A stretch of 64,000 nt of DNA from positions 15,495 through 79,494 of the IMG/VR virus record IMGVR_UViG_3300042549_008472; one strand, 5' to 3'. Position 1 is the stretch's first letter, and the number at the start of each line of letters is the position of its first letter. The translations under genes were made by a program, and so were the position numbers. Source of the stretch: a virus. This document shows, piece by piece, positions 29,982 to 64,000 of this stretch. The notes beneath the pieces were generated by a model. The model was not told the DNA's origin and did not search any database. It was given only the letters and a program-made list of their open reading frames with translations.

Positions 29982-30017
29982 AAAAAGCCAGTTGATTAAT
30001 TTCTTCTGGTTTTTTTG
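29982..30017 (+). terminator. Rho-independent terminator
   Basis: AAAAAGCCAG...CTGGTTTTTT. Confidence 0.6.
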
Positions 30018-30043
30018 TTTTTTGAAAATAAATAATAAATCTT

Positions 30044-30074
30044 TTGCAGGTTTAAAATATAGTTTGTATATTTG
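30044..30074 (+). promoter_or_regulatory. Promoter of the NAD operon
   Basis: TTGCAG...TATATTTG. Confidence 0.65.
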
Positions 30075-30101
30075 TGGAATAAAATAATTAAATTTTTAAA
30101 A

Positions 30102-31670
30102 ATGAGAATGAATAGTATGTTTTTAGCAGATGGTTACAAAGTTGGTCATTTTAACATGTATCAAGATGGGACTGAAGTAGTATACAGTAATTTTACTCCA
30201 AGAAGTAATAAGTATGCTCCAAAAGGCAATAATGGGAAAGTTTTAAACTTTGGACATCAGTATGCAATTAGGTTTATTGTTGAACATTTTAATGAAAATT
30301 TCTTCAATCTAAATAAAGAAGAAGTAATTCAAGATATTAAAACAAATTTTTCTGCATACCTTGGTGTAGACTACGATACAAACCACATTTCAGAATTACA
30401 TGATTTAGGGTATTTACCTATAGAAATTAGAACCTTGGATGAGGGTACAGAGTCTGCAATTAAAATTCCTATTTTATTTTTATATAATACAGACATTAGG
30501 TTTGCTTGGGTTACTAACTACATAGAAACTATTTTAAGTAATCTTTTATGGCAACCCCTTACAACGGCTACAAATGTTTTACTTATGAAACGAATTGTAA
30601 AAGAAGCAGTATTAAGAACCGACAAAGATAATGTAGGAGCTGTTGATTTTATGTTACATGATTTTTCTATGCGTGGTTTAACAGGATTAGATGCTACAAT
30701 TGGTTCAGGATTAGCTTTTGCCTCTGTATCAAAAGGTTCTGATAGTCTACCTACAATTAAAGCTTCTCAGCATTATTATGATGAAACAGAAACTCCTGTC
30801 TTTTCAGTTCGGGCTAGTGAGCATTCACAAATGACTGCGGGGGGAGTAGAAGGAGAGTTTGAAATTTATAAAAACTTACTGACTAAATTTCCTAATGGAA
30901 TTATGTCTTTAGTATCAGACAGTTTTGATTTATGGAGAGTTTTGACAGACTATTTACCTAAACTGAAAGATATTATCATGGCTCGTGATGGTAAATTGGT
31001 TATTCGCCCTGACTCAGGAAATCCTGTGGATATTATTTGTGGGATAAACAACTGTAAAGTTGAAAATGAACAAGTATTTAAATTTGAAAAAGAATATGTA
31101 AGAGATAATGGAGGAAATGAAAGAGAACCAAATTGGTATTGGGAAAAGAAATCAAATGTGAAATACTCCCATTCTGAAATTAAAGGTGTCATTGAATTAC
31201 TTTGGGACGTTTTTGGAGGTACTATAAATGAGCAAGGCTTTAAAGTATTAGACTCCCATATTGGAATGATTTACGGTGAGGCTATCAACCAAGATAATAT
31301 TAAACAAATCTTTGAAAGATTAGAAGCTAAAGGTTTTGCGGCAAGTAATTGTTTCTTTGGACAAGGTAGTTATTCAATGCAAATGGTAACTAGAGATACT
31401 TGGGGGATGGCTTTAAAGTGTATTGCTCAACAAAGAAATGGTAAGATAGTTGAAATCTTTAAAGACCCTATTACAGATGACGGAATTAAAAAATCTGCAA
31501 AAGGGTTAACAGTTGTTTATAAAGATGAAAATGGAGATTATTATTTGAAAGACCAAGCCACATTAGCAGAAGTTAATTCAGAAGAAAATCAACTTAAAGT
31601 TAGATTTAAAGATGGTAAGTATTATAACCAAACAACGTTAACCAAAATCAGAGAGAGAATTACTGAATAA
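30102..31670 (+). CDS. NAMPT-family enzyme, probably Namat (nicotinamide ADP-ribosyl transferase) of NARP1
   Basis: DGYKVGH, YSNFTPR, HDFSMRG, ASEHS, VSDSFD, IRPDSG, KKSAKG; start placed at ATG 30102. Confidence 0.85.
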   Translation: MRMNSMFLADGYKVGHFNMYQDGTEVVYSNFTPRSNKYAPKGNNGKVLNFGHQYAIRFIVEHFNENFFNLNKEEVIQDIKTNFSAYLGVDYDTNHISELHDLGYLPIEIRTLDEGTESAIKIPILFLYNTDIRFAWVTNYIETILSNLLWQPLTTATNVLLMKRIVKEAVLRTDKDNVGAVDFMLHDFSMRGLTGLDATIGSGLAFASVSKGSDSLPTIKASQHYYDETETPVFSVRASEHSQMTAGGVEGEFEIYKNLLTKFPNGIMSLVSDSFDLWRVLTDYLPKLKDIIMARDGKLVIRPDSGNPVDIICGINNCKVENEQVFKFEKEYVRDNGGNEREPNWYWEKKSNVKYSHSEIKGVIELLWDVFGGTINEQGFKVLDSHIGMIYGEAINQDNIKQIFERLEAKGFAASNCFFGQGSYSMQMVTRDTWGMALKCIAQQRNGKIVEIFKDPITDDGIKKSAKGLTVVYKDENGDYYLKDQATLAEVNSEENQLKVRFKDGKYYNQTTLTKIRERITE

Positions 31671-31682
31671 AATGAAAGAGCT

Positions 31683-32042
31683 ATGAACAAAAGTAAGAAA
31701 TTCTACAGAGTATCAAATACAGATACTAATCAAGGATTATGGTATCACTTCGACGGAGAATTTTCAGGGTTTATTCACGACAAATTTAATTTCTGCAATA
31801 ATAGCGATTTAAAAATGGATTTTGATGAAGACCTTGTAGGATGGATTTCGGTAGTTGATAATATTGATGATTTATATCAGTGGTTTTCAAAAGACGATAT
31901 CTTAAAACTTCAAGAACACGGTTGGTACATTCACGAGTATGAATCCCAAGATTTCAGATTTTATGACAAATTTGGTCACTACATAATCAAACAGGGTACT
32001 TTTAGACTAACAAATAAAATAATACTAGATGGAAATCACTAA
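31683..32042 (+). CDS. Hypothetical protein inside the NAD operon
   Basis: Between the two enzymes; overlaps the next start. Confidence 0.6.
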   Translation: MNKSKKFYRVSNTDTNQGLWYHFDGEFSGFIHDKFNFCNNSDLKMDFDEDLVGWISVVDNIDDLYQWFSKDDILKLQEHGWYIHEYESQDFRFYDKFGHYIIKQGTFRLTNKIILDGNH

Positions 32043-32856
32043 ATATCCCGACGGAAGTTCTTATGTAACTGTTCATCCCATATCAGAATTTACTTTTAGA
32101 CTAAATAATTATGAAGATGTGTGGCACTTAAATCAAACAGTGGATGCTTTAAATAATTTAGGAATTACCCCAACAGTTACAATTCCTAATCTTTTAGATG
32201 CACAAGCTGATAGAAGATTTGCTAAAAATCAAAGTAGTGGTTTAAAACTAATTTGTAAGTTTTTAAATTCTATGAAAGCTGATTTTAAAGTTTTTCACCC
32301 TCACAACGGAGAACTTGTAGAAGGTTTAATGGACAGTGTAAAAATAATTGATAACTTTGGTTTTATAGGCAGAATTCTTTCTGAGCATTTCAATAATGGA
32401 AAAGGTATACACGGAGAATTTCAAAACAATTTGGTTTTATTCTCAAGTGATGCAGGTGGATTTAAACCTTTAATGAAGTTAGCCGATAAATTACAATGGA
32501 AAGGAGAAGTATATGGAGCTTCTAAGTCACGAAAGTATGAAGATGGTAAATCAAAATTAGTACAAGTTGTTGACAGAGAAGATTTTAGAGGTAAGGATGT
32601 GCTGATTATAGATGATTTAATGATAGGAGGCTCAACATTTGTAGGCTTAGCTAAAATGTTGAAGGAACGTAATTGCGGTAGATTATATTTAGCTTTGTCT
32701 CATATTACAATAGAGTCTCCAAATGCTGAAATATGGAAACTTTTCGACAGAGTTTTTACCACTAATTCTAAAGGTTTAGATTATATTGTAACGGTAGGTA
32801 GTTATGATAAATATGGTAAAAAACCTAAAAATCTAATAGTAGTTGATTTATTTTAA
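32029..32856 (+). CDS. PRPP-synthetase homologue, probably Adps (ADPR-PP synthetase) of NARP1
   Basis: YPDG, AQADRRF, HPH, SDAGG, LIIDDLMIGGSTF, VFTTNS. Confidence 0.85.
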   Translation: MEITKYPDGSSYVTVHPISEFTFRLNNYEDVWHLNQTVDALNNLGITPTVTIPNLLDAQADRRFAKNQSSGLKLICKFLNSMKADFKVFHPHNGELVEGLMDSVKIIDNFGFIGRILSEHFNNGKGIHGEFQNNLVLFSSDAGGFKPLMKLADKLQWKGEVYGASKSRKYEDGKSKLVQVVDREDFRGKDVLIIDDLMIGGSTFVGLAKMLKERNCGRLYLALSHITIESPNAEIWKLFDRVFTTNSKGLDYIVTVGSYDKYGKKPKNLIVVDLF

Positions 32857-32860
32857 TTTG

Positions 32861-32888
32861 AAGCGGGGATTAATTTTCTCCGCTTTTT
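32861..32888 (+). terminator. Rho-independent terminator
   Basis: AAGCGGGGA...TCTCCGCTT followed by T tract. Confidence 0.7.
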
Positions 32889-32889
32889 C

Positions 32890-32920
32890 TTGTTTAATAT
32901 AAAAATAACTTGTATATTTG
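32890..32920 (+). promoter_or_regulatory. Bacteroidota-type promoter
   Basis: TTG...TATATTTG. Confidence 0.55.
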
Positions 32921-32939
32921 TGGAATAAAATTAGAAATT

Positions 32940-34350: not shown

Positions 34351-34948
34351 TTGAAGATGAAAAATAAAATGGTATTAGAAGAAATAAAACGGTTTGAGAA
34401 TGCACACAAAGAATTTACTTCTAAAATAAAGGAAGAAGAGGATAAGATACAGGTTGCAAAAAACAAAATAGATAATATTTTAAAAGAGCAAAGAGTTTAC
34501 ACAAATTCATGTAAACACACTTTAGATGATGGTAGTACAGCTTTTAAGGAATCGAGGTATTGGATTTCAGATATATACACTTATACAGATAATTGGACAG
34601 GGGAAGAAGCTGAAGGAGACAATGGGCATACACAATATATTAAAACCTGCCAAATTTGTGGAAAAGAAATAGAATATTAAAATTGATAGAATGAAAGAAA
34701 CTAAAGAACAATTAGCACTGTGGTACTATAAAAGAGATGTGGAAGGAGTTCCTTTGACACAAGATAAAATAATTCAGTCTTTTTTAGAAGGTTTTAATTC
34801 GGCGGAAAAGAAACTGCTCGATAAACTAAACCACTACAAAAGTCAACTAAAAGAGTTAACCTCTGCTAAGCTAGACAAGAGAGTAAACCAAGACAAAGTA
34901 AGAGAGTTAGAGATAAGGATAGAAACACTACAAGATTTGTTAAAATAA
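34351..34948 (+). CDS. Two hypothetical genes (34351-34680, 34691-34948)
   Basis: Last + strand ORFs before the strand switch. Confidence 0.55.
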
Positions 34949-35910: not shown

Positions 35911-38433
35911 AATTTTTTCATTAATACTTTTTTACCTTCATAAGTTCCAAACTGAAATCCTTCTTTCTCTAATCTTTTATAAATATCTCTTCTTCTACTA
36001 TCACTCCAACCTATCATCAAATATTCTTTAAAATTACTGGTGTTTACTCTATTTTTATAGTAAGTCGGAAAATCATACATCGCCTCTTTAATATAAAGTA
36101 AAGCACGTAATCCGCCCAACGATTTATTCTGATATTTTAATATATTTATAACCTTTCGGTTTTGTTTGAAAGTCATATAATTTACCTTCTATAAGTCCAT
36201 CAGCTCTAATCCAAAAAGCAATCACCATATTAAAAGCAAACTCTTTATGATAATAGGTATCTTTTTCTATAGAACTGTTTCTATAACCTAATTTTTTAAG
36301 TTGATTATATATCTTTAATTTTGTACTATTACTTACTTCACTAACATCTATTGATGTTTCTCTTAAATCTATTTCTGTTATTTTCATTTTAATTTTTTTA
36401 CGGGCAAATCTGCCAAAGACGATAAAGCACTAATAAACTCGAAATCTATGAATTCGGGGAAAGAGAAATAAGAATCAATCGCCAAAATCATTGCTTCATT
36501 GTCGAGAAGCCTTAATCGAATGTTATAGCCGTCTGATTCTATTTGAAATAATTGTGGATTAGATTTAACTAAAACAAGTTTTCCAAGTAGTGTTTGACTG
36601 TTGAATCTTTCACTGAGAACTTTGTAATTTTCTGCGGAATAAATCATATTTTTATTTGATTAAGTTTTGGCAAAAACAAATGTTTACTGCCGAAGTTTAA
36701 TTTATCTTGCCCCACCAAATCATGTAAGGGTCGTATTTACAATTTTCACTATTATACTCAACACCCTCAAATAAATATTTATATCCTTTTGGAAGTACTT
36801 CGGTTATTAATCTAGCTTCTTTTTCATCCCAATCATCGGGTAAGACTAAACCACCTACCTCAAATCGTTTTGCAGGTTTGCACTTTTTATAGTTGTTCAT
36901 TTGTTAGTGTTTTTAATTCCTCAATCAATTCTAAAACGCCTTCTTCTGACAACACTGTACCTTCGTCTCCCATGTGTGCGCTAAACGGAAATACTATAAG
37001 TTGTAAACAGTTATCTTTATTATATTGAACTTCAAAATATCTCTTATCAAATTCAAATCCTGGACAATAATGTGAGGATTCTAAAATTTCCGCAAAAGAA
37101 TAAAAAGCAGCAAAATTAATTTCATCACTCTCTTCTAATCTTTCTAACTCCAAACATAATAAATACATAGTCTTTGTAACTCCAACTACCTTACTTCTCA
37201 TAATTTCTTAAATTTAATGTTCAAAAACCTATTCCACAAAACAGATGTATTAACTCTTTCAATTAGTGCATCTATTGTAATAATAATTGCACCTCCCCAA
37301 TTGAGTATAGGAATAAAAATAAAAACCCCATACTTAAACAAATCCCCAACAGTTTTTACGTCCTTATCTAAATAAATCGAGTATAAAAGCATAAGAATCA
37401 AAGGTAATACATACCCTAATAATATAATTTCTATCATAATAATTCTACTTTTAATATTAACTCTAATTTTTTAATCTCACTCAAAGTCCAATCATGTTCA
37501 CCTTTTAAATTCAGTTCAAAACCAACTGTTTCCTCTAACTCTTCTTTTTCTATTTTATTTTCGCGCAAAAAAGATAAAACAGCAAAAGAAATTTCAAAAG
37601 AACTATCTAACCAATACTTATTAATTTTTCTCCAACCTATTCTACCAAGAAATCCTGCATCTCCTTGATAAGCAGTTCTAGTTAACCAGTCACCAACTGT
37701 TTCTCCTTTAATACGTTTAAAAAATGTACGTGGTTGACAGTCTAAATAGAAGTTGTGGAAGTTTAATCCACTCTGTAGTTCTAGCATATTTTAATTATTA
37801 AATTCGTTACTAAAAGGAACAAAAGTACCTGTTTTAAATCTGTCTAATTCTATATCCCAACAGTCATATAACCATCCTCCTGGAACTTTCATTATAAAGA
37901 TACCAAATTCAGTTTGCAATCCTTCATGTAGTCCTAAATTGTACAGTGATTTCATAATTTTTATTTTGTTTTATATATCCACAAAGTATCGACGGTCTTA
38001 CCATCGGTTGTAAGTCTGTATTTGGGAATTATTTTATTTTTTGAACTTATTTCAGTTCCGCTAGGTAATAATGTCATACTAACTACCCCTATTACAATAC
38101 CTCCAAAAATACAACCCCATAAAAAACCCCTTTCAAATTGATTTTCCATAATTATTTAATTGTATCCCCCGCTTTTAAATTCTTCACATCAAACTTTAAA
38201 ACTCTTATAATACGAACAGTGTCTGTATTTTTAATGTATATGTTCACAGAACTATTACTAGAAAAAGTCTGAGACCACCCTACATAAATAAAACCCTTAT
38301 ATTTTTGAATAGGTTCAACATTTGTTGTAGTGCAAGAAATCGCGCAAAAAGCTAAAAACAGTAAAATTAATTTTTTCATAATATTTATATTCATTCCACA
38401 AAGATAAAGAATAGTTTTTAAATGACAAAACAA
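35907..38433 (-). CDS. Cluster of small hypothetical genes, including membrane proteins and a putative lipoprotein (38152-38379)
   Basis: Overlapping co-directional ORFs; MKKLILLFLAFCAISC lipobox-like. Confidence 0.55.
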
Positions 38434-38468
38434 AAAAGGAGAAACTTTTCAGCTCTCCTTGATTTTAA

Positions 38469-39524
38469 TTATTTATCTAATCTAAATCCAACAAATACAG
38501 GAAACCTCATAACACCCTCTTCACTTACTCCAAAATATCTAACTTCGCAAGTTTTACCAATGTAATCAGCTTTGTTTTTTAATAAGTCTACTCTTTCTTC
38601 ATGTGTCAATCTTGTACCTGCTTCATTTCTTTTACCTTTAAAATCAAAAACAGGTGTACCCCATTCAGGTCTTTGTATTCCTGGAACAACGTCTATGAGA
38701 GGAAGAGCCACATCGTCAAAGTCTTTTTTCTTTAATAAATTAGAACTTCTACCATTTAATTTATAACCTTCATTACCATGTCTTACAATAGAGCCCTCAT
38801 AACCTTCTTGTACAAAATTAATGTGAATTCTCTCTAAATCTTCTCTGTTTACTTCAAAGGTTTCAACTGTTTTTAGTGGTAAATTTAGATTTAAACTTTT
38901 AATGTGGTTACTTCTATTTTTAAATTTTTCGGCGGAAACAAAATCATAAATATGATACCAAACATCAAAAGACTCTTCTCTCCACTTCTTAATAAGTCTC
39001 ATATTTTCTTGAAAACTTTTACCATGGATATATAATTCTCCATCATAAACTCCATCAGGCAGTTCACTTAAAGCATCTACTATGTGAGGAAGAGTTGTAA
39101 TAGTTTTACCGTCTCTTGAAAGCATTTCTACTTCTCCATTCTTAACAGTTGATAAACAACGCATGCCGTCCAACTTAGCTTGAATAAAAACATCTCCATC
39201 CCAATCTATTTTCTTCTTTTCCTTTTCAAAATCTTTAGCTAACATTGGAAATAACTTCTCTCCATTTAAAGCTTCTTCTTGTGTTGGGTAGTAATCTTCT
39301 TTAAGCTTTATAGCAATCATAGCTTCCGCCTCTACTAAGCACTGTTCATAGTCTGTAGTTTCATTTACTTTTCCAATATTTTTACCTTTACATTCCTTTG
39401 AATGAATTATAGGACTATCTGTATCTAGTAATCCTGACTCTTGGAAAAGTGTGTTACCCTCAGTTCTAATAGTTAAAAATCTTAACTTTCCTTTTGAGTC
39501 TTTTTTGTAAATTGTTTGTGTCAT
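38469..39524 (-). CDS. lig: ATP-dependent DNA ligase
   Basis: PMLA, QAKLDGMR, DGELY, EG.IVR, LLK.K, RFPVF; start probably MTQTIYK. Confidence 0.9.
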   Translation of the reverse strand: MTQTIYKKDSKGKLRFLTIRTEGNTLFQESGLLDTDSPIIHSKECKGKNIGKVNETTDYEQCLVEAEAMIAIKLKEDYYPTQEEALNGEKLFPMLAKDFEKEKKKIDWDGDVFIQAKLDGMRCLSTVKNGEVEMLSRDGKTITTLPHIVDALSELPDGVYDGELYIHGKSFQENMRLIKKWREESFDVWYHIYDFVSAEKFKNRSNHIKSLNLNLPLKTVETFEVNREDLERIHINFVQEGYEGSIVRHGNEGYKLNGRSSNLLKKKDFDDVALPLIDVVPGIQRPEWGTPVFDFKGKRNEAGTRLTHEERVDLLKNKADYIGKTCEVRYFGVSEEGVMRFPVFVGFRLDK

Positions 39525-39541
39525 AATTGTGTTATTTTTGA

Positions 39542-39572
39542 CAAAGATATGATTAATTTTTATGTTGTGCAA
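39542..39572 (-). promoter_or_regulatory. Bacteroidota-type promoter
   Basis: Minus strand TTGCAC...TATCTTTG. Confidence 0.65.
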
Positions 39573-39658
39573 TTAAATTTCGCGGAAAAAGGATAAAAAA
39601 CAGACATTTTATAGTAAAAATATCAGTTCAAACCTGACTAGAGTGATATGAATGGTAA

Positions 39659-40270
39659 TTATACCGAATCCCATCCAACTCCATAACATATTTTATCAAA
39701 ACCAGCTCTGCCAACTTTATCGGAGAATAATTTATATAGATTATCATTATTTTTACCTTTTTTATAATTAGCTCGTATATATCTTACATCTTCATTGGTA
39801 AGGTTGGTGTTGGAATGTTGTTCTCCTTTTACTTTTTTAACGTTATCAAAACAGCCATTTATGTAAGCATGTAATCCATTTTCAGACTTAGTGCACCATT
39901 CTATATTAGAAATTCTGTTATCCCATTTCTTAAGGTTTAGATGATTTACAATTGGTAGGTTTTCAGGATTATTCACAAAGTGCTCAGCTACAACTCTATG
40001 CCCTAAAAAATTAAATCTTACACTATCTACATACAATATTAATTGCACATAACCATTTGAATAATAGTTGTTTTTTAAAATCTTACTTTTGGTGAATTGC
40101 TTTATACCATTACTTCTAGTTAATAATCTATCTTTATTTCTAAATCTACCTAAACTACTCACTTCATAATAATCTTCAAAACCTTTAATAGGTAGCCAAA
40201 TTTCACTTTCTAATTCTTCTTTAGTAAACTCAATTACCATTTTTCTTAACTCTTGCGTTGTTTGTTTCAT
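39659..40270 (-). CDS. NUMOD4-HNH homing endonuclease
   Basis: EIWLPIKGFE.YEVSSLGR; HRVVAEHF...VNH...DN...NIEWCT.SEN..H. Confidence 0.85.
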   Translation of the reverse strand: MKQTTQELRKMVIEFTKEELESEIWLPIKGFEDYYEVSSLGRFRNKDRLLTRSNGIKQFTKSKILKNNYYSNGYVQLILYVDSVRFNFLGHRVVAEHFVNNPENLPIVNHLNLKKWDNRISNIEWCTKSENGLHAYINGCFDNVKKVKGEQHSNTNLTNEDVRYIRANYKKGKNNDNLYKLFSDKVGRAGFDKICYGVGWDSV

Positions 40271-40290
40271 ACTTAATTTAAAATAAAAAT

Positions 40291-40394
40291 CCCGCAAACA
40301 AAAACTAGGTAGGATAGTCTTCGTAAGCGGGGGTAATAAAAATTCTTTAAAGGTAATTAAGCATCCTACCGAGTAATTACTGAGTGTAAATATA
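40291..40394 (-). promoter_or_regulatory. Two-hairpin leader with complementary loops
   Basis: Minus strand: GTAATTA-(GGTAGGAT)-TAATTAC hairpin then CCCGC-(ATCCTACC)-GCGGG hairpin. Confidence 0.55.
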
Positions 40395-40440
40395 CACCTT
40401 TAACTCTACACTTCCAAATGAGTGTTAAAATTTTAACTTT

Positions 40441-42027
40441 TTAGTAGAAAGTGGTGTATTTACCTTGGGTAATATGAATGTGTTGAGCTTTTCCATTAGG
40501 GTATATAACCACGTTAGAGGCATTCCAGCTTGACATTCCAAGATTATACCCCATCCTAAGTTTAGTAAGAGTTCCAACACATAAATGCCCATCCGTTTTT
40601 GAACTAGTATGTGAATGTGCAGTGACCGTTCTAACATTTAGGTTTTTATATTGTGTAATGCTGCCTCTCGACCCAGATGCCCCACGATTCCCATGGATGG
40701 ACAATTCAAAACCTAAAACATTGTAAGACTCATCTGCTCCAAGACACTTGATATGGTTGAACTCAGATTCTAATATATAAGCTATAATACCTTTAGGAGC
40801 TAAACCTTTTGCTGTAATGTTTGCATATTCAAGATATAGTTTTCTATTCCCTTCTTTTCTCCAATCACCGCTTTGTAACCATCTGTCAATGAAGTCGTTA
40901 TGATTTGCAGACGGAATAATGTAGTTGTATTTAGGCTTAACTTTAAACCACTCTCTTATGTAGTTAATTTCTTTTTCTAAAGAGTGAGAACCGTCTTCTT
41001 CTCTCTTCAATAACTGAAATGGATTGGACTTCTCGTGATGACTGATGCTCGACATATCCGCGATGTCATGGAGTATTACGTGTTTAGGTTTAAATTTATC
41101 TAACATACCAAAAGTAACTTCTACATTTTCTATATCCTCTGCTGTTAAATGTAAATCACCTAAAACGGCAACCTCAATTTTATCATTATTATGAATCACA
41201 CCATCAGTAAGACGATTATTCAAGTCATAGAAATTTCCGTTTTTCTCGGCAACAATTTGACGTATGTGAAAAATATCACCATCTAACTCTACTACAACAC
41301 ACCCTATGACATGATTAAATTCACTAGATTTTCCAATTTTTGTATCCGTATAGTTTTCAACTGTACATGCTCCTGTGGTTAGTAGAACTTTACTTGGATA
41401 CCCGTCCAATACTGGTAAAAATCTCATGTGGGAGCGAGGATGCCCAACAATACACGATTCTAGACCCGTCAAACCATTTAATGAGGTAAGGGGAAGTACT
41501 GATGTCGGTTGAATTTTTACGTCGCTTAAAACAACTAAATGCTTGTGTAAATTATGTCTGTTAGCATCAAGATAAGGTAAAATAGATTTATCCCAAGTAT
41601 TTACATTTTTTTCAGCCTTTTCTAATGCTTTACTAGATGCAAGAGAATTTGGATTTTTATAACGTCCAGCAATTATTAATATTTGTGCATCAATTTCTTC
41701 AGCATAGGCTTCCATATTTTTTAGAAAGCCCTTATGGACTTGTGTGTCTGACTGTGCCCAACTTATCAAAAATCTCTTCTTAGAATTATCATGCTGTTTT
41801 TTCTGAGCTTCCTTAAAGTCATCCGTGTCTTCAATTGTGACTACATTGTTAGTAACTCCTAATCTTTGCATAGCTTTTCTCATTCCTCTGCCATAAGTGT
41901 CATCATCAAATGTAAGTCCAAAATGTTCACACATCTTTCTTGCCGCAGGTGTTACACTACTTCCTTGGTCTACAAGATTTTTTACAAAGGTTATATACTC
42001 TTCTGGATACTTTGTCTTTTTACTCAT
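40441..42027 (-). CDS. Calcineurin-like metallophosphoesterase with N-terminal extension
   Basis: GDLH, LHD..D, NH, HG, AHSH. Confidence 0.75.
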   Translation of the reverse strand: MSKKTKYPEEYITFVKNLVDQGSSVTPAARKMCEHFGLTFDDDTYGRGMRKAMQRLGVTNNVVTIEDTDDFKEAQKKQHDNSKKRFLISWAQSDTQVHKGFLKNMEAYAEEIDAQILIIAGRYKNPNSLASSKALEKAEKNVNTWDKSILPYLDANRHNLHKHLVVLSDVKIQPTSVLPLTSLNGLTGLESCIVGHPRSHMRFLPVLDGYPSKVLLTTGACTVENYTDTKIGKSSEFNHVIGCVVVELDGDIFHIRQIVAEKNGNFYDLNNRLTDGVIHNNDKIEVAVLGDLHLTAEDIENVEVTFGMLDKFKPKHVILHDIADMSSISHHEKSNPFQLLKREEDGSHSLEKEINYIREWFKVKPKYNYIIPSANHNDFIDRWLQSGDWRKEGNRKLYLEYANITAKGLAPKGIIAYILESEFNHIKCLGADESYNVLGFELSIHGNRGASGSRGSITQYKNLNVRTVTAHSHTSSKTDGHLCVGTLTKLRMGYNLGMSSWNASNVVIYPNGKAQHIHITQGKYTTFY

Positions 42028-47256: not shown

Positions 47257-47542
47257 TAGAGTATCTGTCGATATATTTAATTTGGACTTCTCTCTCTTTT
47301 GTGATGTTGTTAATAACTGTTTTTGTCTCTACTATTAGACCGTCTAAACTGTCTATTTGTTTCTGTTGTTCTCTCTCTTTTGCTTCGTACTTTTGAATTT
47401 CTTTCTTAGTTTGTTCATCTTTATATTCTAAGAGTTCATTAGTATTCCGCCACTGAAAAAATAAGATAATGATTAAAATTAATATTAAAATTAACTGCCA
47501 ATTAGACTTTAAAGAGGATACGATTCCTTGTTTGTTTTCCAT
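47213..47542 (-). CDS. N-terminally anchored coiled-coil protein (i-spanin-like)
   Basis: TM helix followed by coiled coil. Confidence 0.35.
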   Translation of the reverse strand: MENKQGIVSSLKSNWQLILILILIIILFFQWRNTNELLEYKDEQTKKEIQKYEAKEREQQKQIDSLDGLIVETKTVINNITKEREVQIKYIDRYSNEDLSKYFEERYGK

Positions 47543-47665
47543 TATAGTGAATTATTAGTATTTTACTTTCTTCTACATATTCTAAATTTGGCTTATATTT
47601 GTACAAAAGTAGAATGATGACTATTAATATTATGATTGTTGCTAACATATATTATTAAGATAACG

Positions 47666-48121
47666 TTAATACTGACAAATTTGCCCCGTAAAATTAACAG
47701 TAAAAGGCTGGTTAATATTTAAAGGTTGTCCACTTGTATTCGTGTAAGAGTAAAAGTAAGTATTGCCACTTACCCACGTTCCCGCTGGCTGAAAAGTTTT
47801 TCCTTGAATTACTAAAGTAGCGTTTGGGTTTACGATTGGGACATTTGATTGAAATTTCAAATAAAACCCATTACTTTGACCTTGTCCAGTTACCAAAATA
47901 GGGCAATTTGTAGGCGGTGTGTATTGATAATAAGATGCTGGAACTTTCATAATTTCCCCGTTTCGGATAACTAAAATAGTGTCGTTTACCGTGCCTATTG
48001 AGGCTTTTAGTTTTACGTTTCCATTAACTTCTAGCTTAGCCGTTGGGTTTTTCGTTCCGATTCCAACGTTTTGAGAAATTGCCATTGTTGGCAAAATTAG
48101 TAGTAAAAATAGTTTTTTCAT
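47666..48121 (-). CDS. Secreted protein with Bacteroidota QNVGIGT.NP.AKLEVNG motif
   Basis: Signal peptide plus GIGT motif and beta-rich C-terminus. Confidence 0.55.
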   Translation of the reverse strand: MKKLFLLLILPTMAISQNVGIGTKNPTAKLEVNGNVKLKASIGTVNDTILVIRNGEIMKVPASYYQYTPPTNCPILVTGQGQSNGFYLKFQSNVPIVNPNATLVIQGKTFQPAGTWVSGNTYFYSYTNTSGQPLNINQPFTVNFTGQICQY

Positions 48122-48122
48122 T

Positions 48123-48304
48123 TTAAAAAGGTGTTTCTGATTTCTCAGGTTTTGGAATTAAATTTTTGTACTTTTTTTTTGATTTTTCCGATATCGCATC
48201 TCTGATGAATTTACCTACATCTACGTTATAATATTTCATCTTTTATAAAGTTTTGTGTTGCGTTTCTGAAATTCGTATAACCTTGTTTTAGTATATAATT
48301 TCAT
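48123..48304 (-). pseudogene. Ribbon-helix-helix-like small gene, disrupted
   Basis: MKLYTKT (frameshift) VIRISETQHKTL (TAA) KMKYYNVDVGKFIRDAISEK...PKPEKSETPF. Confidence 0.55.
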
Positions 48305-48337
48305 AATTGTAATACATTTATAGCGATTAGCGATTAG

Positions 48338-48547
48338 TTATGTGATATTTACGCAGTTGACTAAAGCGTACCACATTCCTTTTTCATCATAACAAGTTTC
48401 AGCTTCTTTATTTATTTTAGCTATTTTAAAAATTAAACCGTTGCAATAATTTACTGTATCCCCGACAGAAAAAACATCACATAACAGTGGTTTTGACTTA
48501 TTGCCACATTCGATTAAATTTTCAGTTTGTTTTGTACTTGTATTCAT
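48338..48547 (-). CDS. Cassette gene, hypothetical
   Basis: Start inside hairpin loop, stop TAA inside GTTA core. Confidence 0.7.
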   Translation of the reverse strand: MNTSTKQTENLIECGNKSKPLLCDVFSVGDTVNYCNGLIFKIAKINKEAETCYDEKGMWYALVNCVNIT

Positions 48548-48612
48548 TGTGTTTAATTTAAATATTAGGTCTTATTTTATTGGCAACAAGACAAAGCCAC
48601 AATCCGTTAGCG
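48479..48612 (+). repeat. attC-like site
   Basis: ACATAAC, arm 48487-48506, arm 48581-48600 (17/20 complementary), GTTAGCG. Confidence 0.85.
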
Positions 48613-48867
48613 GTAATTTGCGAGAGCCGTAACTCGTTCCCAAAAAACTTTTTCAACTCTATCCATATCAAAACGGCTACTTTCTTTCATCATTAAAAAC
48701 ATTTGAGTAATAGCATAATCAAGCTCGCCTTTATCTTCTGTTTTTAAGTCAAAGTTTTTTTCTTTATTTTCTCCATAAAAAACCAACCATTTTACTTCGT
48801 CAACGGAAAAACTACCGCTAACAATCGTTTTGTCTAATGGCTTGGCTTGGGTATTATCTGAAATCAT
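48607..48867 (-). CDS. Cassette gene, hypothetical
   Basis: Start inside hairpin loop, stop in GTTA core. Confidence 0.7.
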   Translation of the reverse strand: MISDNTQAKPLDKTIVSGSFSVDEVKWLVFYGENKEKNFDLKTEDKGELDYAITQMFLMMKESSRFDMDRVEKVFWERVTALANYR

Positions 48868-48950
48868 ATTTTTTAAATTTAAAAGTTAGTGTATTTTTGT
48901 AAAGTCTAGTCTTAAATTACGCCACTAGACAAAGCGACCAAACGTTATAA
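48816..48950 (+). repeat. attC-like site
   Basis: CGCTAAC, arm 48826-48841, arm 48921-48936 (14/16), GTTATAA. Confidence 0.85.
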
Positions 48951-49151
48951 GCAAGTGTTACGTTTAGTCCATAAATTAGACAATAACCCAACAAGATTAT
49001 GAACGCAACTTTTTACATAAATCCGCTTCCATTCTACCAACCCAGTTAATTCATCTTCACGCCTCAATAATTCAACTGTTTTTATTCCACTTCTAAAATC
49101 TTGAACAAAACTAATATGTTCCCATTTACTCCATTTTCTTTTTTTAAACAT
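48945..49151 (-). CDS. Cassette gene, hypothetical
   Basis: Stop in GTTA core. Confidence 0.7.
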   Translation of the reverse strand: MFKKRKWSKWEHISFVQDFRSGIKTVELLRREDELTGLVEWKRIYVKSCVHNLVGLLSNLWTKRNTCL

Positions 49152-49192
49152 AATTTTATAATTTAAGTTATTTTTTAATTACCTACACCTGC

Positions 49193-49320
49193 TTATAACA
49201 GCAGTTACACGGCAGTTTGGGCTTTGTTTTTAATTTTCTGTTATTGTTTTTAAGTTCTGTTTCAACTCCGAAAGTATAGGCTTTTTTTACCTCAACCGCT
49301 CGTGTAACTGCAAAACTACG
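49193..49320 (+). repeat. Terminal attC-like site lacking its GTT core
   Basis: TTATAAC, GCAGTTACACG...CGTGTAACTGC (11/11), AAAAC, then TAC instead of GTT. Confidence 0.7.
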
Positions 49321-49341
49321 TAAGCAATAAAATAAAATTGC

Positions 49342-49920
49342 CTACACAATAGGCAATGTCCAATCATTTTTAACGCAATACTCTTTACAAGCATTTCCAA
49401 TCTTTGTAATTATTTCCGCATCTGCTTCTAACATTCCGTGTCCTTTCCATTCATAGGTACTTTGAATTGTATCGGAAATATTACCAATTACTTTAATCAA
49501 ATCTTCTTTTGTCAATTTTTCTAATAAGTTTTCCATCACTAATTTTTTAGATAACTTCTTTTAACATTTCTTTCATGTACAGTAAAACTACCTTTAAGTT
49601 CATCATAGATATGGAAGTACCCGCTGTTAAAGTACCCAAAATACCTACCTCCACCAATTCTGTTTTTTAAAAATATTAAATATTTCATAATGCTTATATT
49701 ATATAATGTTTAAAAATCTCGCCCAAAAATAAGACTGATAAAAAAGAGAACTGTAAAAAATCCAAAACCCTACAAGCTTTAGCCATTTAGGCGTTACAAT
49801 TGTAAAAACTTCTGTAAAAGTTACAAGAGGTACATTAAATAATTTTGTAAAACTTAGTAAATGTAAAACTCCAAATACTAAAGTAAAGGAGAATAAAAAA
49901 TCTGTTGTTGTCATATTCAT
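49342..49920 (-). CDS. Small hypothetical genes (49342-49539; membrane protein 49699-49920)
   Basis: ORFs downstream of the promoter at 49934-49964. Confidence 0.55.
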
Positions 49921-50025: not shown

Positions 50026-52158
50026 TTATGCAGAACAGGCTAAACAATCCTCTCCCTCTTTTGGCTTTTCAAAAACAGTTCTTTTATATAAAGATTCAGT
50101 TCCTACTTTTTTCTTTTTTGTGCGAGTGTAATAGACACCCGTTTTTAATCCTTTTTGCCACGCATAAATTAAAGCACTTGAAATCTTAGTAAAATCAGCA
50201 TCCAAGTAATAAGTATTAAAACTGTAAGATTGGTCTATAAAAGGAGCAGATTCTGCTAACATATCAATCCTATGTCTTTGCTTTACTTCATAAGCTGTTT
50301 TATACTTATCTCTTATAGGTTTTGGTATAAATGCAATACTTTGAATACTACCTTCTGCTTGGATAATCATATCTGCCATATCTTTATCCCACAAACCAAT
50401 AGCTTTTAATTCTTTTACTAAAGTATCTTGAACTACTACAAATTCACCTTTATCTAATTTTCTAACATACATCATAGATTGTGGAACTTCAAATCCCTCT
50501 GTGCAAGATAATAAATTAGAACTTGATGCTGTTGGCATTAAAGCTACAAATAAGGTGTTACAAACTGGTTTAGAAGTATCAACATCTAAATCTTTAATGT
50601 CTATTCCATACTTACAGGGGTGTAAATTCCAAGTTGCATAATCTGATTTTTCATAATCTTTAAATTGAATACCGTAATCTTCATAATATCTTTGACTACC
50701 TTTAATTGCTCCTTCATAAATCTGTTTCATTACCTCTTTCATTTCTTTTGGTGCGTCAGGGTGTTCAAAATGTAATCCTCTATCATATAAATACTCTGCT
50801 AAACCAGCAACACCGATTCCAACTGACCTTTGATTTAATCCACCTTTTAAAGCTCTTTCTGTTGGATATTTATTTCTGTCAATTACTCTATTAATATTAT
50901 AACATAGTACCTCTGCCGCTTTTTTTATATCTTTGCAATATGGTAAAGGAATAGAACCTAAAGCGCATTGCCCTGTTTCATCAGGGGTTGCTATGTTGGT
51001 TATTTCTGCACAAAGTTGAGTTGACTTTACAACACCTAAATGTCTTTGCATATTATACTTATTAATAGTATCTATGTAGTTTATGTAAGGTGTTCCTGTT
51101 GAAACTTGTGATGCAATCATTTTTTGCCAAATTTCTAAAGGGTTTATTTTTTCGCCAATACCTAATTCAACTGCTTTATTATAAGCATCTGTCGCTTCTT
51201 GCCCTACTAATTCATATAATCTAATATTATGTTTTTCAAGGTCATAAGGACAAAACAGATAAAAGTCTTTTTGGTTAATTAACGATTCCATAAAGAAATC
51301 ATTGATAACAACTCCTGTGAAAATATCTCTTGTTCTTAATCTCTCATCTCCCTCGTTTAGTCTTAATTCTAAAAACGGAATAATATCTTTATGATAAATT
51401 GGTAAATATATTGAGGCACTTCCAGGTCTTCTGCCCTTTTGATTGTAAAACCTTAAAGTGGCTTGCATCATATCCGCTAAACGAACTACACCACTTGCAA
51501 AACCTTGACCTCCTACTCTTGATTTACTACTTCTTATATTACCAATATAAACACCTATACCAGCACCATTTTTACTTGATTTTGCAATCTCTTTTAAACT
51601 TTCTTGTATTGAATCAAGGTCATCCCCTGCCAACATACTGGAATCACAACTTATAAAAGTTTCAGAACCTGTTCCAGCATTTAAAGTTGTAGGTGTAGCA
51701 AAATTAATTTGTTTTGAAATTAGCATATCAAACATTTCTTGCTTTTCTTCTGTTGTTTCTCCAAAGTAGTCTGCTATTCTTGCATACATTTCTTGCGGAG
51801 TTTCATTTCCTTGTTGATAGGTTTTTTTAAATGTCGAATAGGCTAAATAATCATATTTAATATCTTTGTCTATGTCAAAAGAAAATCTGTTTTTATTTGT
51901 TTTGCGGAAATCTCTTGTTAAGGCAATTCTCGCCGCAAAAAAACTATAATCAGAATCTAATACAATCTTACCCAAAGCCTCGCTAATAATGATTTCATCA
52001 ATCTCATTAGTGGTTATACCATCTTTAATTTGTCCTATAACTGATTGTGTTAACGTATCACAATCTACGTTTAAACCCTCCCCTTGCTTCTTAATTCTGT
52101 TTAAAATTTTGTTTGGTGAAAAGCTTTCCTCTTTTCCGTTAGTTTTTATTATCTTCAT
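50026..52158 (-). CDS. nrdA: Class Ia ribonucleotide reductase alpha subunit
   Basis: ATP-cone, ATPT..NAG, ISC, STQLCAEI, MPTASSS, GLKTGVYY, C-terminal CLACSA. Confidence 0.93.
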   Translation of the reverse strand: MKIIKTNGKEESFSPNKILNRIKKQGEGLNVDCDTLTQSVIGQIKDGITTNEIDEIIISEALGKIVLDSDYSFFAARIALTRDFRKTNKNRFSFDIDKDIKYDYLAYSTFKKTYQQGNETPQEMYARIADYFGETTEEKQEMFDMLISKQINFATPTTLNAGTGSETFISCDSSMLAGDDLDSIQESLKEIAKSSKNGAGIGVYIGNIRSSKSRVGGQGFASGVVRLADMMQATLRFYNQKGRRPGSASIYLPIYHKDIIPFLELRLNEGDERLRTRDIFTGVVINDFFMESLINQKDFYLFCPYDLEKHNIRLYELVGQEATDAYNKAVELGIGEKINPLEIWQKMIASQVSTGTPYINYIDTINKYNMQRHLGVVKSTQLCAEITNIATPDETGQCALGSIPLPYCKDIKKAAEVLCYNINRVIDRNKYPTERALKGGLNQRSVGIGVAGLAEYLYDRGLHFEHPDAPKEMKEVMKQIYEGAIKGSQRYYEDYGIQFKDYEKSDYATWNLHPCKYGIDIKDLDVDTSKPVCNTLFVALMPTASSSNLLSCTEGFEVPQSMMYVRKLDKGEFVVVQDTLVKELKAIGLWDKDMADMIIQAEGSIQSIAFIPKPIRDKYKTAYEVKQRHRIDMLAESAPFIDQSYSFNTYYLDADFTKISSALIYAWQKGLKTGVYYTRTKKKKVGTESLYKRTVFEKPKEGEDCLACSA

Positions 52159-61478: not shown

Positions 61479-62282
61479 TTATATTGGCAAATTTATTTTA
61501 CTTAAAATTTGGTTTGACACGTGAGTATAGACCTCGGTTATTTTTGAGGAGCTGTGGCCTAAACATTTTTGTATGATTCGCAGGTCTGTTCCTGCTTCCA
61601 ATAATGCCGTTGCTTGTGAATGCCTTAGTAAATGAAAATGATAATCTTTACCAATATATTTCTTAACTATTTCATTACAACTTCTGTGCGAATATTTCAA
61701 TCCAAACTGACCACTAAACAAGAACTCTTTTGGTCTACATTCTTTAAAGTATTCGCGCAAAAGATTTAAAACAGTAGAAGATAGAGGAACAAAACGGCTT
61801 TTCCTACCTTTACTATTAACAATATGAATCAACATTCTTTTACTATCAACATTCTCAATTTTTAAATTACAAACTTCACTAACTCGCATTCCTGTAGAGT
61901 AAGCTAAAGTGATAATAGCTTTGTGTTTCAAATTTTCAATTTTTGAAATCTTATCAAGTAAAAAATCTTTATCAATTACTCTTGGTAATTTTTTCTCTGA
62001 TTTTGGTCTTTTAAAAGACACTTTATCATACTTCTTCTCTAATCCGTATTTATATAAAAATCTAATAGAATTTATCACTTGATTTTGTTGAGAAACTGAA
62101 CTAAATTTATAATTATCTAAATAGTTTTGAAAATCTTTAGCATTTAAATGTGATATTTGTTTATCTCCAATACTTTTTACAAAATCCTTTATGTGATAAA
62201 TATAGTTTTCTTTTGTTCGTGGAGAGTAATTAAGATATATAAACTTTTGTTCGCAAATCTTTATAATTTTTTCGTTTAACAT
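61479..62282 (-). CDS. Tyrosine recombinase (Xer/IntI-like), probable cassette integrase
   Basis: N-terminal YSPRT..NY; catalytic GMRVSE, KGRK, HLLRH, LGH, VYTHV. Confidence 0.9.
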   Translation of the reverse strand: MLNEKIIKICEQKFIYLNYSPRTKENYIYHIKDFVKSIGDKQISHLNAKDFQNYLDNYKFSSVSQQNQVINSIRFLYKYGLEKKYDKVSFKRPKSEKKLPRVIDKDFLLDKISKIENLKHKAIITLAYSTGMRVSEVCNLKIENVDSKRMLIHIVNSKGRKSRFVPLSSTVLNLLREYFKECRPKEFLFSGQFGLKYSHRSCNEIVKKYIGKDYHFHLLRHSQATALLEAGTDLRIIQKCLGHSSSKITEVYTHVSNQILSKINLPI

Positions 62283-62332
62283 GTTGATTTTATTAGTGTT
62301 TCAATACAGTTGAGTATATATTTATGTTATAA
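62283..62332 (+). other. attI-like site
   Basis: Hairpin-free segment between the integrase ATG and the first core GTT at 62326. Confidence 0.6.
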
Positions 62333-62692
62333 CACATTTTTTTCCAATGTTACCGCTGAATCAGAAATAACTAAAATTTCTTTATAAGTTTCTTTGTCTA
62401 CTATTAAAGCCATAGGTTTAGTAAATTTCATATGTTGAAAAACCAAATCTGTTATTCCTTCAATCCTGCTTAAATTGCTTTTTGCTATTTCTAAATCTCT
62501 TTCCCATTCTGCAATTAATTTCTTTTGTTTTTGCACTTTTTCAAACGCAAATAATAATACTTCCTTTGCTACATTTTCATCGCCTTGAATTTCATTTACA
62601 ACCCCTGAAAAAGAAGTTAAATCGTCTAAATTAAAACGTGTTATAACATCGGTTTTGTTAAATGCCTTGTTTTGGTCTTTTTCTGTATTCAT
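62327..62692 (-). CDS. Cassette gene, hypothetical coiled-coil protein
   Basis: Start in hairpin loop, stop in GTTA core. Confidence 0.7.
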   Translation of the reverse strand: MNTEKDQNKAFNKTDVITRFNLDDLTSFSGVVNEIQGDENVAKEVLLFAFEKVQKQKKLIAEWERDLEIAKSNLSRIEGITDLVFQHMKFTKPMALIVDKETYKEILVISDSAVTLEKNVL

Positions 62693-62774
62693 TTTGTTTA
62701 ATTTTAAAGTTATTGTTTACTTGTTGCGTTTAGTCTTAAAATACGGCACTAAACAAAGCCGTCAAACGTTACCT
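62641..62774 (+). repeat. attC-like site
   Basis: TTATAAC, arm 62650-62666, arm 62745-62761 (14/17), GTTACCT. Confidence 0.85.
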
Positions 62775-62798
62775 GCAAGTGCTACATTCGTTCTTCGA

Positions 62799-63728
62799 TT
62801 AAACATTTTCGTTAGAAAAATTATTAAAAATTTCCTCCCCTTTTAAAAAAGAAAAAATATAAGCAATTACATCTACTGTCCAGCCATTTCCTAATACTTC
62901 ATATCGTTTAGAAGATGATACCATTTTTGTATAATCTTTTGGAACACTTTGTAGTTTCTCTACTTCGTTTTCTGTTAATCTTCTTATTTCTCCATTAGGC
63001 AAATATGTTTTGGTTAAATGCCTTGCAGCTCCGTGATGTGATGCAGATAAACAAGCCATTAATCCATCATATCTGTAAATATTATCCTGTTGGTGTTTAC
63101 CTGCCTTGTGTCTTATTATTTCATTCTCGCTCCATTTGTAATTTAAGTCAAGTTTTGACTTTTGCTTTTCGGTTAAATAATATTCACTACTTGCTTCTTC
63201 TAAAATATCATTCAAGCAATGATTAAATGTATTTGGAATATTTTCAATTTTTATATTAGTCCAAAATAATCTTGGTCTATTTTGCGGCACAAAAAACTTT
63301 GAGTTTATTTCAATAGGTTCTACTCCTATTGCTTCTGAAATTATATCTTGCCATTCTTTTTTCATTTTTACATTTTCTAATAAAAAATAAGTTGGTTTAG
63401 TTTCATTTAATATTCTTACATATTCCCAAAATAAACCACTTTTTCCATCAAAACCCTCTCCTCTACCAGCATTTGAAAAAGATTGACAAGGACTTCCCCC
63501 TATCAATAAATCTACTTGTGGTAAATCCGTGCCTTTTATTTTCGTAACACTTCCAAGTTGTTTAGTATTTGGGTAGTTTGCCATTGTTATTTTTATAGCA
63601 TCTTTGTCAATTTCAGAAGCAAAGTAATTCTCTACTTCAAGCCCTGCTCTTTCTAACGCTATTTGACCACAACTAATGCCATCAAACAATGATAATACGT
63701 TTATTTTTTCTTTTTTGCCTACACTCAT
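62799..63728 (-). CDS. C5-cytosine DNA methyltransferase (cassette-borne)
   Basis: LSLFDG, GGSPCQ, LLENV, QNRPRLFW, LGNGW. Confidence 0.92.
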   Translation of the reverse strand: MSVGKKEKINVLSLFDGISCGQIALERAGLEVENYFASEIDKDAIKITMANYPNTKQLGSVTKIKGTDLPQVDLLIGGSPCQSFSNAGRGEGFDGKSGLFWEYVRILNETKPTYFLLENVKMKKEWQDIISEAIGVEPIEINSKFFVPQNRPRLFWTNIKIENIPNTFNHCLNDILEEASSEYYLTEKQKSKLDLNYKWSENEIIRHKAGKHQQDNIYRYDGLMACLSASHHGAARHLTKTYLPNGEIRRLTENEVEKLQSVPKDYTKMVSSSKRYEVLGNGWTVDVIAYIFSFLKGEEIFNNFSNENV

Positions 63729-63788
63729 TTTTAATAATTTTTTTGTTTAGTATTTCGTTTAAGTTTCTCGTTAATTAACCGCACCAGC

Positions 63789-63881
63789 AGGTAACAAGGT
63801 ATTTGCAAAATTGCCCATCAACATTTGTGCTTAATTTCAAGTATCTGCAAGGGCAACTTCGCAAATACCCGACCGTTAGTG
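63789..63881 (+). repeat. attC-like site
   Basis: AGGTAAC, arm 63798-63816, arm 63851-63869 (17/19), GTTAGTG. Confidence 0.85.
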
Positions 63882-63887
63882 GCAATG

Positions 63888-64000
63888 CTACCCGAACACA
63901 CGAGCAACTGCCAAATCATAATATTTTACCTCTTTTTCAATTCCAATAAAAGAACGGTTCAACTCTTTTGCTCCTAAACAAGTTGTTCCTACTCCCATTG
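63888..64000 (-). CDS. C-terminus of a beta-class N6A/N4C DNA methyltransferase (partial, cassette-borne)
   Basis: Manual translation: ...MGVGTTCLGAKELNRSFIGIEKEVKYYDLAVARVFG-stop (SAM-binding motif). Confidence 0.8.
   Translation of the reverse strand, partial: MGVGTTCLGAKELNRSFIGIEKEVKYYDLAVARVFG

Follow-up and report, generated by a model that had tools for sequence, protein, structure and literature searches.

The closest described systems are the sedentary chromosomal integrons and CALINs (Vibrio VCR), in which imperfect hairpins with invariant AAC...GTT cores and covarying stems of 100-140 nt resemble one another within a family, the first bases of each cassette are complementary to the bases before the AAC of its far end, an attI site lies just upstream of the recombinase start, arrays without an integrase exist, and the small cargo consists mainly of unknown genes and defence-related functions. 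The phage locus described here resembles these systems in each of these respects, with an attI-like site in the place of attI, and its sites have, with respect to that site and the recombinase gene, the polarity shown by the attC bottom strand of classical integrons. It differs in being borne by a phage, in having a 267-aa Xer-like recombinase without the IntI insertion, in the replacement of extrahelical bases by equal arms with fixed wobbles and mismatches and a one-sided bulge of 3-4 nt, and in the placement of the cassette genes on the opposite strand, co-directional with the recombinase, rather than being read from Pc away from intI. The PeSL cassettes of T4-type phages, reportedly set out by Arbiol and co-workers in 2010, are also small phage genes in hyperplastic regions, each with an expression-signal stem-loop and shuffled among relatives, the shuffling being attributed to homologous recombination; unlike the present locus, they have no covarying unit-end complementarity, fixed AAC/GTT core or linked recombinase. 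Xer-family enzymes move gene modules in the pdif modules of Acinetobacter plasmids and in IMEX such as CTX phage, in the latter through a folded single-stranded site, and both features would apply here, but the present sites are TAAC/GTTA hairpins of 100-140 nt, the enzyme is encoded by the phage beside an array, and no 28-bp dif-like sites (11-6-11; XerC/XerD binding) were seen in the sequence flanking the units.

The cassette system itself is barely described in the literature. It is touched on by Qi et al. 2023 (Front Microbiol, PMC9892861), who reported a CALIN with two methyltransferases in Polaribacter phage P12002L, one site of which, P12002L_attC1, was the single site of six that IntI1 failed to recombine (section 3.4 of that paper). 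The P12002L_attC1 oligonucleotide maps to positions 30002-30062 of the phage genome (L116), between two methyltransferase genes, and matches the covariance model R1 described below. The P12002L CALIN resembles the array described here in its site family, in coming as two site clusters and in having no recombinase of the kind encoded at 61479; in contrast to our reading, the paper treats the sites as ordinary HattCI-predicted integron attCs in divergent directions, and draws no tie to a phage Xer-like recombinase, a unit-end signature or inverted genes. The family-site clusters of P12002L lie at 30002-32931 and 38029-40955, around methyltransferase and Mom-like genes, and its record has no annotated integrase. 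In the full-text literature outside subscription journals, no account was found of a link between an Xer-like recombinase and such arrays, of inverted cassettes or of a multi-array layout. Homologous integrases in Freya, Danklef, Leef and Ingeline have been taken as signs of a temperate lifestyle (Bartlau et al. 2021).

The stretch of DNA analysed here (the window) makes up the final 64 kb of the 79.5-kb IMG/VR record of a lake-water phage, a record with an estimated completeness of 56%. The surroundings of positions 48337-49329 are AT-rich, and every gene there is on the minus strand. We read this region, with a probability of roughly 0.78, as a three-cassette array without a recombinase that belongs to an integron-like system of phages of Flavobacteriia and related Bacteroidota, and for which the likeliest enzyme is the Xer-like recombinase of the same phage at 61479-62282 (Table 1), the nearest recombinase at a distance of about 12-13 kb.

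Table 1. Features of the two arrays, their sites and the recombinase, in window coordinates
Feature	Position	Strand	Details
Anchor module	48111-48336	-	Proximal array end; 38-aa ORF 48123-48239; ends ...AAATGTATTACAATT...
Cassette 1	48337-48605	-	Unit 48337-48485 plus hairpin A
End pair, unit 1	48337-46 / 48476-85		GTTATGTGAT / ATCACATAAC
Hairpin A	48476-48615	-	Covariance model 60.2 bits, E 2e-12
Cassette 2	48606-48943	-	Unit 48606-48822 plus hairpin B
End pair, unit 2	48606-15 / 48813-22		GTTAGCGGTA / TACCGCTAAC
Hairpin B	48813-48953	-	Covariance model 80.9 bits, E 2e-17
Cassette 3	48944-49323	-	Unit 48944-49199 plus hairpin C; ORF3 48945-49151, 68 aa
End pair, unit 3	48944-53 / 49190-99		GTTATAAGCA / TGCTTATAAC; 14/15 when extended
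Hairpin C	49190-49329	-	Covariance model 46.2 bits, E 8e-9
Xer-like tyrosine recombinase	61479-62282	-	267 aa; Pfam Phage_integrase and SAM_4
attI-like site	62283-62329	-	Between recombinase ATG and first cassette; in gene orientation TAAC, then ATAAATATATACTCAAC...AATAAAATCAAC-ATG
First array	62326-64000	-	Cassettes a, b and c, beside the recombinase
Cassette a	62326-62767	-	Unit 62326-62647; ORF 62327-62692; hairpin D 62638-62777, 65.3 bits
Cassette b	62768-63877	-	Unit 62768-63795; C5 DNA methyltransferase 62799-63728; hairpin E 63786-63884, 72.4 bits
Cassette c	from 63878	-	Runs off the contig end at window position 64000

An earlier reading made from the letters alone (the sequence-only reading) had claimed three perfect 10-bp end pairs in this region, and all are present where it placed them, in the form GTTA-N6 / N6'-TAAC. 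Each pair is complementary at 10/10 positions and extendable to 14-15 nt at 93% complementarity. The pairs had also been called improbable by chance, which is borne out by first-order Markov simulations of the 64-kb window: perfect GTTA-N6/N6'-TAAC pairs with a spacing of 100-400 bp arose at a mean of 0.35 per window (0.0055 per kb), against five seen, and three of these five are tiled inside 0.9 kb. Elsewhere, a perfect 10-bp pair at 34939/35130 (GTTAAAATAA / TTATTTTAAC) around a 61-aa ORF was set aside as probably due to chance, because it is all A/T and the family hairpin is absent from it. Hairpins of the same type had been claimed to follow each unit on the plus strand, and hairpins A, B and C, which are imperfect, about 120 nt long and sited between units, are indeed present, but the end of hairpin C does not conform, being GTAA rather than GTTA. 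This places GTAA at the distal core of cassette 3 (49320-23; TTAC for TAAC on the crossover side), and cassette 3, to judge from this mutated crossover core, is probably fixed. An Rfam search of 47500-49600 gave no match.

The reading frames of the array are bound closely to its sites. ORF1 (48338-48547, 69 aa) starts in the hairpin loop and takes its TAA stop from the TTA of the core, and ORF2 (48607-48867, 86 aa) likewise has a loop start and a core stop. The start of ORF2 inside the loop is real, because a match to phrog_27194 (E 1e-33) spans its full length. A homologue in phage 6H has identical ends, with a sharp onset of similarity at GTTA. Cassette 2, which carries ORF2, is the sole cassette of this array with intact hairpin sites on both sides. 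Every cassette ORF of the window runs in the same direction as the recombinase; three of the six that are complete (ORF1, ORF2 and the ORF of cassette a) begin in a hairpin loop. The core TAA serves as the stop of four ORFs. Loop starts (36/121 ORFs) and core-TAA stops (20/121) are common but not universal in the wider family. The loops at 48548-48606, 48868-48943 and 62693-62767 (minus strand) have a common leader, AACTTTAAATTTAAA(A)CAAAATG, and some also contain TTAAGACTAAAC; these motifs are found in Muminvirus copies too, and may act as a promoter, translation leader or protein-binding site.

The proximal end of the array is formed by the anchor module, which directly abuts the terminal TAAC/GTTA core at 48337-48340. 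Its 38-aa ORF matches phrog_25647, and positions 48141-48319 are 74-80% identical to F. psychrophilum phages 6H, 2A, 23T and FPSV and to Polaribacter phage P12002S; in phage 6H the anchor module is likewise directly followed by a cassette. The attI-like consensus that lies beside the recombinase (see below) is absent at this end of the array. Within 48312-48336 a tandem duplication, TAATCGC TAATCGC on the minus strand, adjoins the terminal TAAC core and is missing in the 6H counterpart. The neighbouring gene for a 151-aa secreted protein (47666-48121; module 47662-48124 of the window) is a mobile module itself: it is 85-93% identical in four otherwise unrelated viral contigs, with similarity that stops within 4 nt of the ORF, and its depth in lake metagenomes is 10-15 times that of its flanks. 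In relatives this gene is followed by TAAC and a hairpin, and in the window by TAAC joined directly to GTTA (47662-47669) with no hairpin. No close relative for an alignment of 47666-49342 was found in IMG/VR by way of the RNR gene (50026-52158), and the relatives found through the 151-aa gene have only that gene in common, their flanks being different.

Sites of the same kind were sought in 46 IMG/VR loci encoding recombinase homologues of 47-91% identity. The 227 kb upstream of the recombinase gene contain 202 TAAC-hairpin-GTTA elements and the 311 kb downstream contain 9, all in a single orientation. A covariance model (R1) was built from 42 hairpins of other phages' loci, with the hairpins of the window left out. 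In this alignment 94.8% of the cells of a 16-bp stem are paired and compensatory changes occur at 14 of the 16 pairs, the covariation score of the stem being 0.549 versus 0.181 for shuffles and at most 0.145 for slid controls. The core and stem features of attC-type sites are thereby present, TAAC and GTTA being invariant in the family and the stems paired with covariation, with the GTTRRRY consensus matched only as GTTA; extrahelical bases are lacking, and the arms are of equal length with conserved G.T wobbles and mismatches and a one-sided bulge of 3-4 nt between core and stem. R1 was run unfiltered over the whole window, as all sites are missed with the default filters, and it detects exactly five sites, A, B, C, D and E, with 46-81 bits on the minus strand and 12-28 bits on the plus strand; besides these plus-strand readings, there was no other match in the window below E 0.5. 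Hairpins A and B score on par with the recombinase-proximal D and E. Thus, in its type of site the array without a recombinase does not differ from the recombinase-linked arrays. By R1-based detection it comprises three family sites in series (48476-49329) with no integrase nearby, a CALIN being defined by at least two attC sites in series under the same circumstance. The CALIN-like nature proposed in the sequence-only reading is supported by this structural family, which its three sites share with the recombinase-adjacent ones, as well as by the cassette signature and the modular breaks that follow.

The cassette signature is the complementarity between the N6 after one hairpin (k) and the N6' before the next (k+1). 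Among 126 non-redundant units of the 46 loci, 61 are complementary at 6/6 positions and 26 further units at 5/6, whereas 6/6 complementarity is found in only 2 of 179 controls that pair the flanks of a single hairpin and in none of 100 that pair hairpin k with k+2. The N6 sequence varies from unit to unit while complementarity is kept. This pattern is expected if the ends of a unit meet and pair in a circular intermediate, as those of integron cassettes do, and is not one that terminal repeats of transposon type or regulatory hairpins would give.

Contigs of four independent lake-water metagenomes were compared with the region. In three of the four, the same phage is present at low depth and is identical over the array, its contigs stopping at cassette boundaries. 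More abundant lake contigs have individual modules in common with the region, their similarity to it breaking off at 48340 (after GTTA), 48605, 48949 and 48940/49205: contigs match 48111-48340 and diverge past GTTA, one covers 48605-48933 (cassette 2), and another holds a copy of 48940-49205, about 90% identical, in a different context. Because metagenome contigs break there, the region 48337-49329 is modular at its predicted boundaries. The invariance that the sequence-only reading had named as telling against it was not seen, as modules of the array recur elsewhere with breaks at the predicted cores. Two metagenome joints, 48185>48869 and 46778>48156, were disregarded because their sides are of merely 21-22 nt.

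The recombinase is linked to an array of its own, the first array of Table 1, through a distinctive junction. In the window this reads TAAC followed directly by ATAAATATATAC, and GTTA sits 44 nt past the recombinase ATG. In about 30 of 38 related loci, a junction of TAAC with a TATTATATATA-like sequence, in consensus TAAC followed by TAT(T/A)ATATATA, precedes the ATG by 33-93 nt; the N6'-TAAC of the last cassette is directly continued there by TAT(T/A)ATATATA. By comparison across these loci, the conserved junction is the attI analogue, and it is one of the first array only. Of five long relatives that bear the recombinase, four have a second array 7-26 kb away from it, and in three of those four the second cluster is 7.5-12.5 kb downstream of the recombinase, as in the window. 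The shared site family and this recurrent layout of one enzyme and two arrays suggest that the 61479 enzyme may act in trans on the array at 48337-49329. The same sites fill arrays in Muminvirus phages (many with DNA methyltransferases), in phage 6H and in Polaribacter phage P12002L. The complete Muminvirus genomes snusmum6-1 and filifjonk9-1 have arrays and encode no tyrosine recombinase; enzyme-less arrays are therefore common, and the 61479 enzyme is not the sole possible agent.

It might accordingly be asked whether the array is a genuine one that has become a fossil, or that is served by an enzyme of another phage or of the host, with the 61479 recombinase acting only on its own array or in lysogeny. 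Arrays in phages without a tyrosine recombinase are consistent with this explanation, as are the absence of the attI-like consensus from the proximal end, the mutated core of hairpin C and the identity of the array in three other lake samples (at low depth, in contigs that stop at cassette boundaries). It is nevertheless improbable, given that A and B score like D and E, that the layout of two arrays and one recombinase recurs in relatives, and that the end pairs of all three units have stayed perfect, a sign of recent formation or of continuing selection.

The limits of a cassette can be read from blocks shared between loci in differing contexts (at least 88% identity). In 26 of 38 cases such a block begins in the TAAC 5' of a hairpin or immediately ahead of it, in no case does it begin at GTTA, and block ends fall at TAAC. 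A 960-nt cassette is 99.9% identical between two loci (L061 and L063), and in phage 6H a 99.7% duplicate consists of a unit together with the hairpin that holds the start of that gene. In gene orientation, then, a cassette is a hairpin followed by its gene, with the crossover probably at or beside TAAC. The classical layout, in which the hairpin lies downstream of its gene, was rejected because the shared blocks begin at the TAAC 5' of the hairpin and none begins at GTTA. Two comparisons were dropped as evidence for placing the crossover, and the larger set used, because their breakpoints are not clean at the core: block X, shared by L002 and L003, was transferred together with 26 nt of a foreign hairpin arm and without its N6'-TAAC end, and the replacement between L004 and L005 stops about 8 nt short of a TAAC. 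As some breakpoints lie within hairpins, homologous recombination inside hairpins also occurs.

Breakpoints inside hairpins rather than at the core, as in some relatives, would also be seen if the hairpins were expression elements (leader, start codon, terminator or RNA-processing stem-loops) that are shuffled by homologous recombination in the manner of T4-type PeSL cassettes, with no site-specific recombinase. The conserved AT-rich leader and start codon in the loops fit such a role, and the G.T wobbles are conserved on the transcribed strand, as RNA would predict. We regard this explanation as quite improbable, since it accounts neither for the covarying N6/N6' complementarity over 150-1100 bp nor for the clustering of block ends at TAAC, nor for the strictly one-sided linkage to a tyrosine recombinase and the attI-like junction.

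For an integron-like array served by the Xer-like enzyme, we infer the chemistry, the folding strand and present activity as follows. On the minus strand, with a solidus at the cassette limits, a cassette reads TAA/C-G, a bulge of 3-4 nt, an imperfect stem of about 20 bp, a loop of 40-90 nt, the return stem, T-GTTA-N6, the gene, and N6'-TAA/. It would be excised as a circle, in which N6' and N6 would come to flank the hairpin and lengthen its base into a stem of about 11 bp, giving a complete attC-like site; that the ends of a unit are complementary yet differ between units would be due to this pairing of N6 with N6' in the excised circle. The Xer-like recombinase would recognise the folded sense strand, with its conserved G.T wobbles, and carry out strand exchange at the TAAC core or next to it; at the first array, it would act on the attI-like site that lies directly upstream of the recombinase gene. 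The mutated core of hairpin C and the absence of the attI-like consensus at the proximal end of the array at 48337-49329 count against this scheme, as does the absence from the recombinase of the IntI-specific insertion that is thought to be needed for attC chemistry.

The recombinase was compared with both classes of enzyme. Among NCBIfam models it scores 171 bits with XerA_Arch and 150 bits with the integron integrase model TIGR02249 (cut-off 265), the latter split into two stretches, and every model remains below its cut-off. It aligns contiguously and end to end with XerA of P. abyssi (4a8e), and the C-terminal part of the alignment shows its HxxR, H and Y motifs. In the alignment with VchIntIA (2a3v), recombinase residues 179-209 face chain positions 181-259, about 48 residues fewer, and the additional domain specific to IntI is missing. 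That the array is a classical integron CALIN whose attC sites are canonical IntI substrates is very unlikely, for although the AAC/GTT cores, hairpin architecture and cassette signature are all of attC type and HattCI called a family member in P12002L an attC (PMC9892861), the R1-matching P12002L_attC1 was not recombined by IntI1 (PMC9892861), the linked enzyme has no IntI insertion, extrahelical bases are absent and the cassette genes are inverted. On balance, Bacteroidota phages rather appear to run an IntI-independent analogue of the integron, with a short Xer-like enzyme, hairpins without extrahelical bases, several arrays per genome, of which one would lie beside the recombinase gene and the others be served in trans, and self-expressing inverted cassettes that would store counter-defence genes.

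If the Xer-like enzyme recombines these hairpins, cassette recombination guided by single-strand structure would extend beyond IntI and its special domain, which would bear on how integrons arose from Xer recombinases. Phages would own a dedicated multi-locus device to acquire and reshuffle small genes, such as those for DNA methyltransferases and a Thoeris inhibitor, a phage counterpart to bacterial integrons that store defence systems, and many "integrase" annotations in flavobacterial phages, now taken as signs of lysogeny, would need re-examination. The specific contribution of the present phage is the presence of two arrays with one recombinase, a layout that recurs in relatives and makes action in trans directly testable.

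Beyond these phages, searches of representative prokaryote genomes gave 13 matches to the recombinase, all on MAG contigs; upstream hairpins are present only at two of them, with 51% and 53% identity, whose loci extend into the upstream sequence. Among ten near-identical isolates of the Polaribacter phage Freya, length varies by up to 4.9 kb. Immediately upstream of its integrase, Freya_10 carries some 4.1 kb holding ten small genes (L050, 1-4146), which are absent in Freya_1 (L051), the record of which begins within a TAAC core; the Freya_10 integrase is 37% identical to the window recombinase. As no clean GTTA-N6 units and no hairpins of the family were seen in Freya_1 and Freya_10, the difference between them is not counted as evidence.

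The cargo of related arrays was surveyed in 115 cassette ORFs. Most are unknown, and seven match methyltransferase families (N6_N4_Mtase 3, MT-A70 2, C5 DNA methylase 1, Cons_hypoth95 1), the other identified cargo being Tad6, a GNAT acetyltransferase and a phosphatase. The Tad6 match, to a known anti-defence gene that encodes a type I Thoeris inhibitor, is full length (E 4.6e-41) and belongs to a cassette ORF in the arrays of L052-L097. With methyltransferases and a Thoeris inhibitor as cargo, the arrays are probably an exchangeable store of counter-defence genes.
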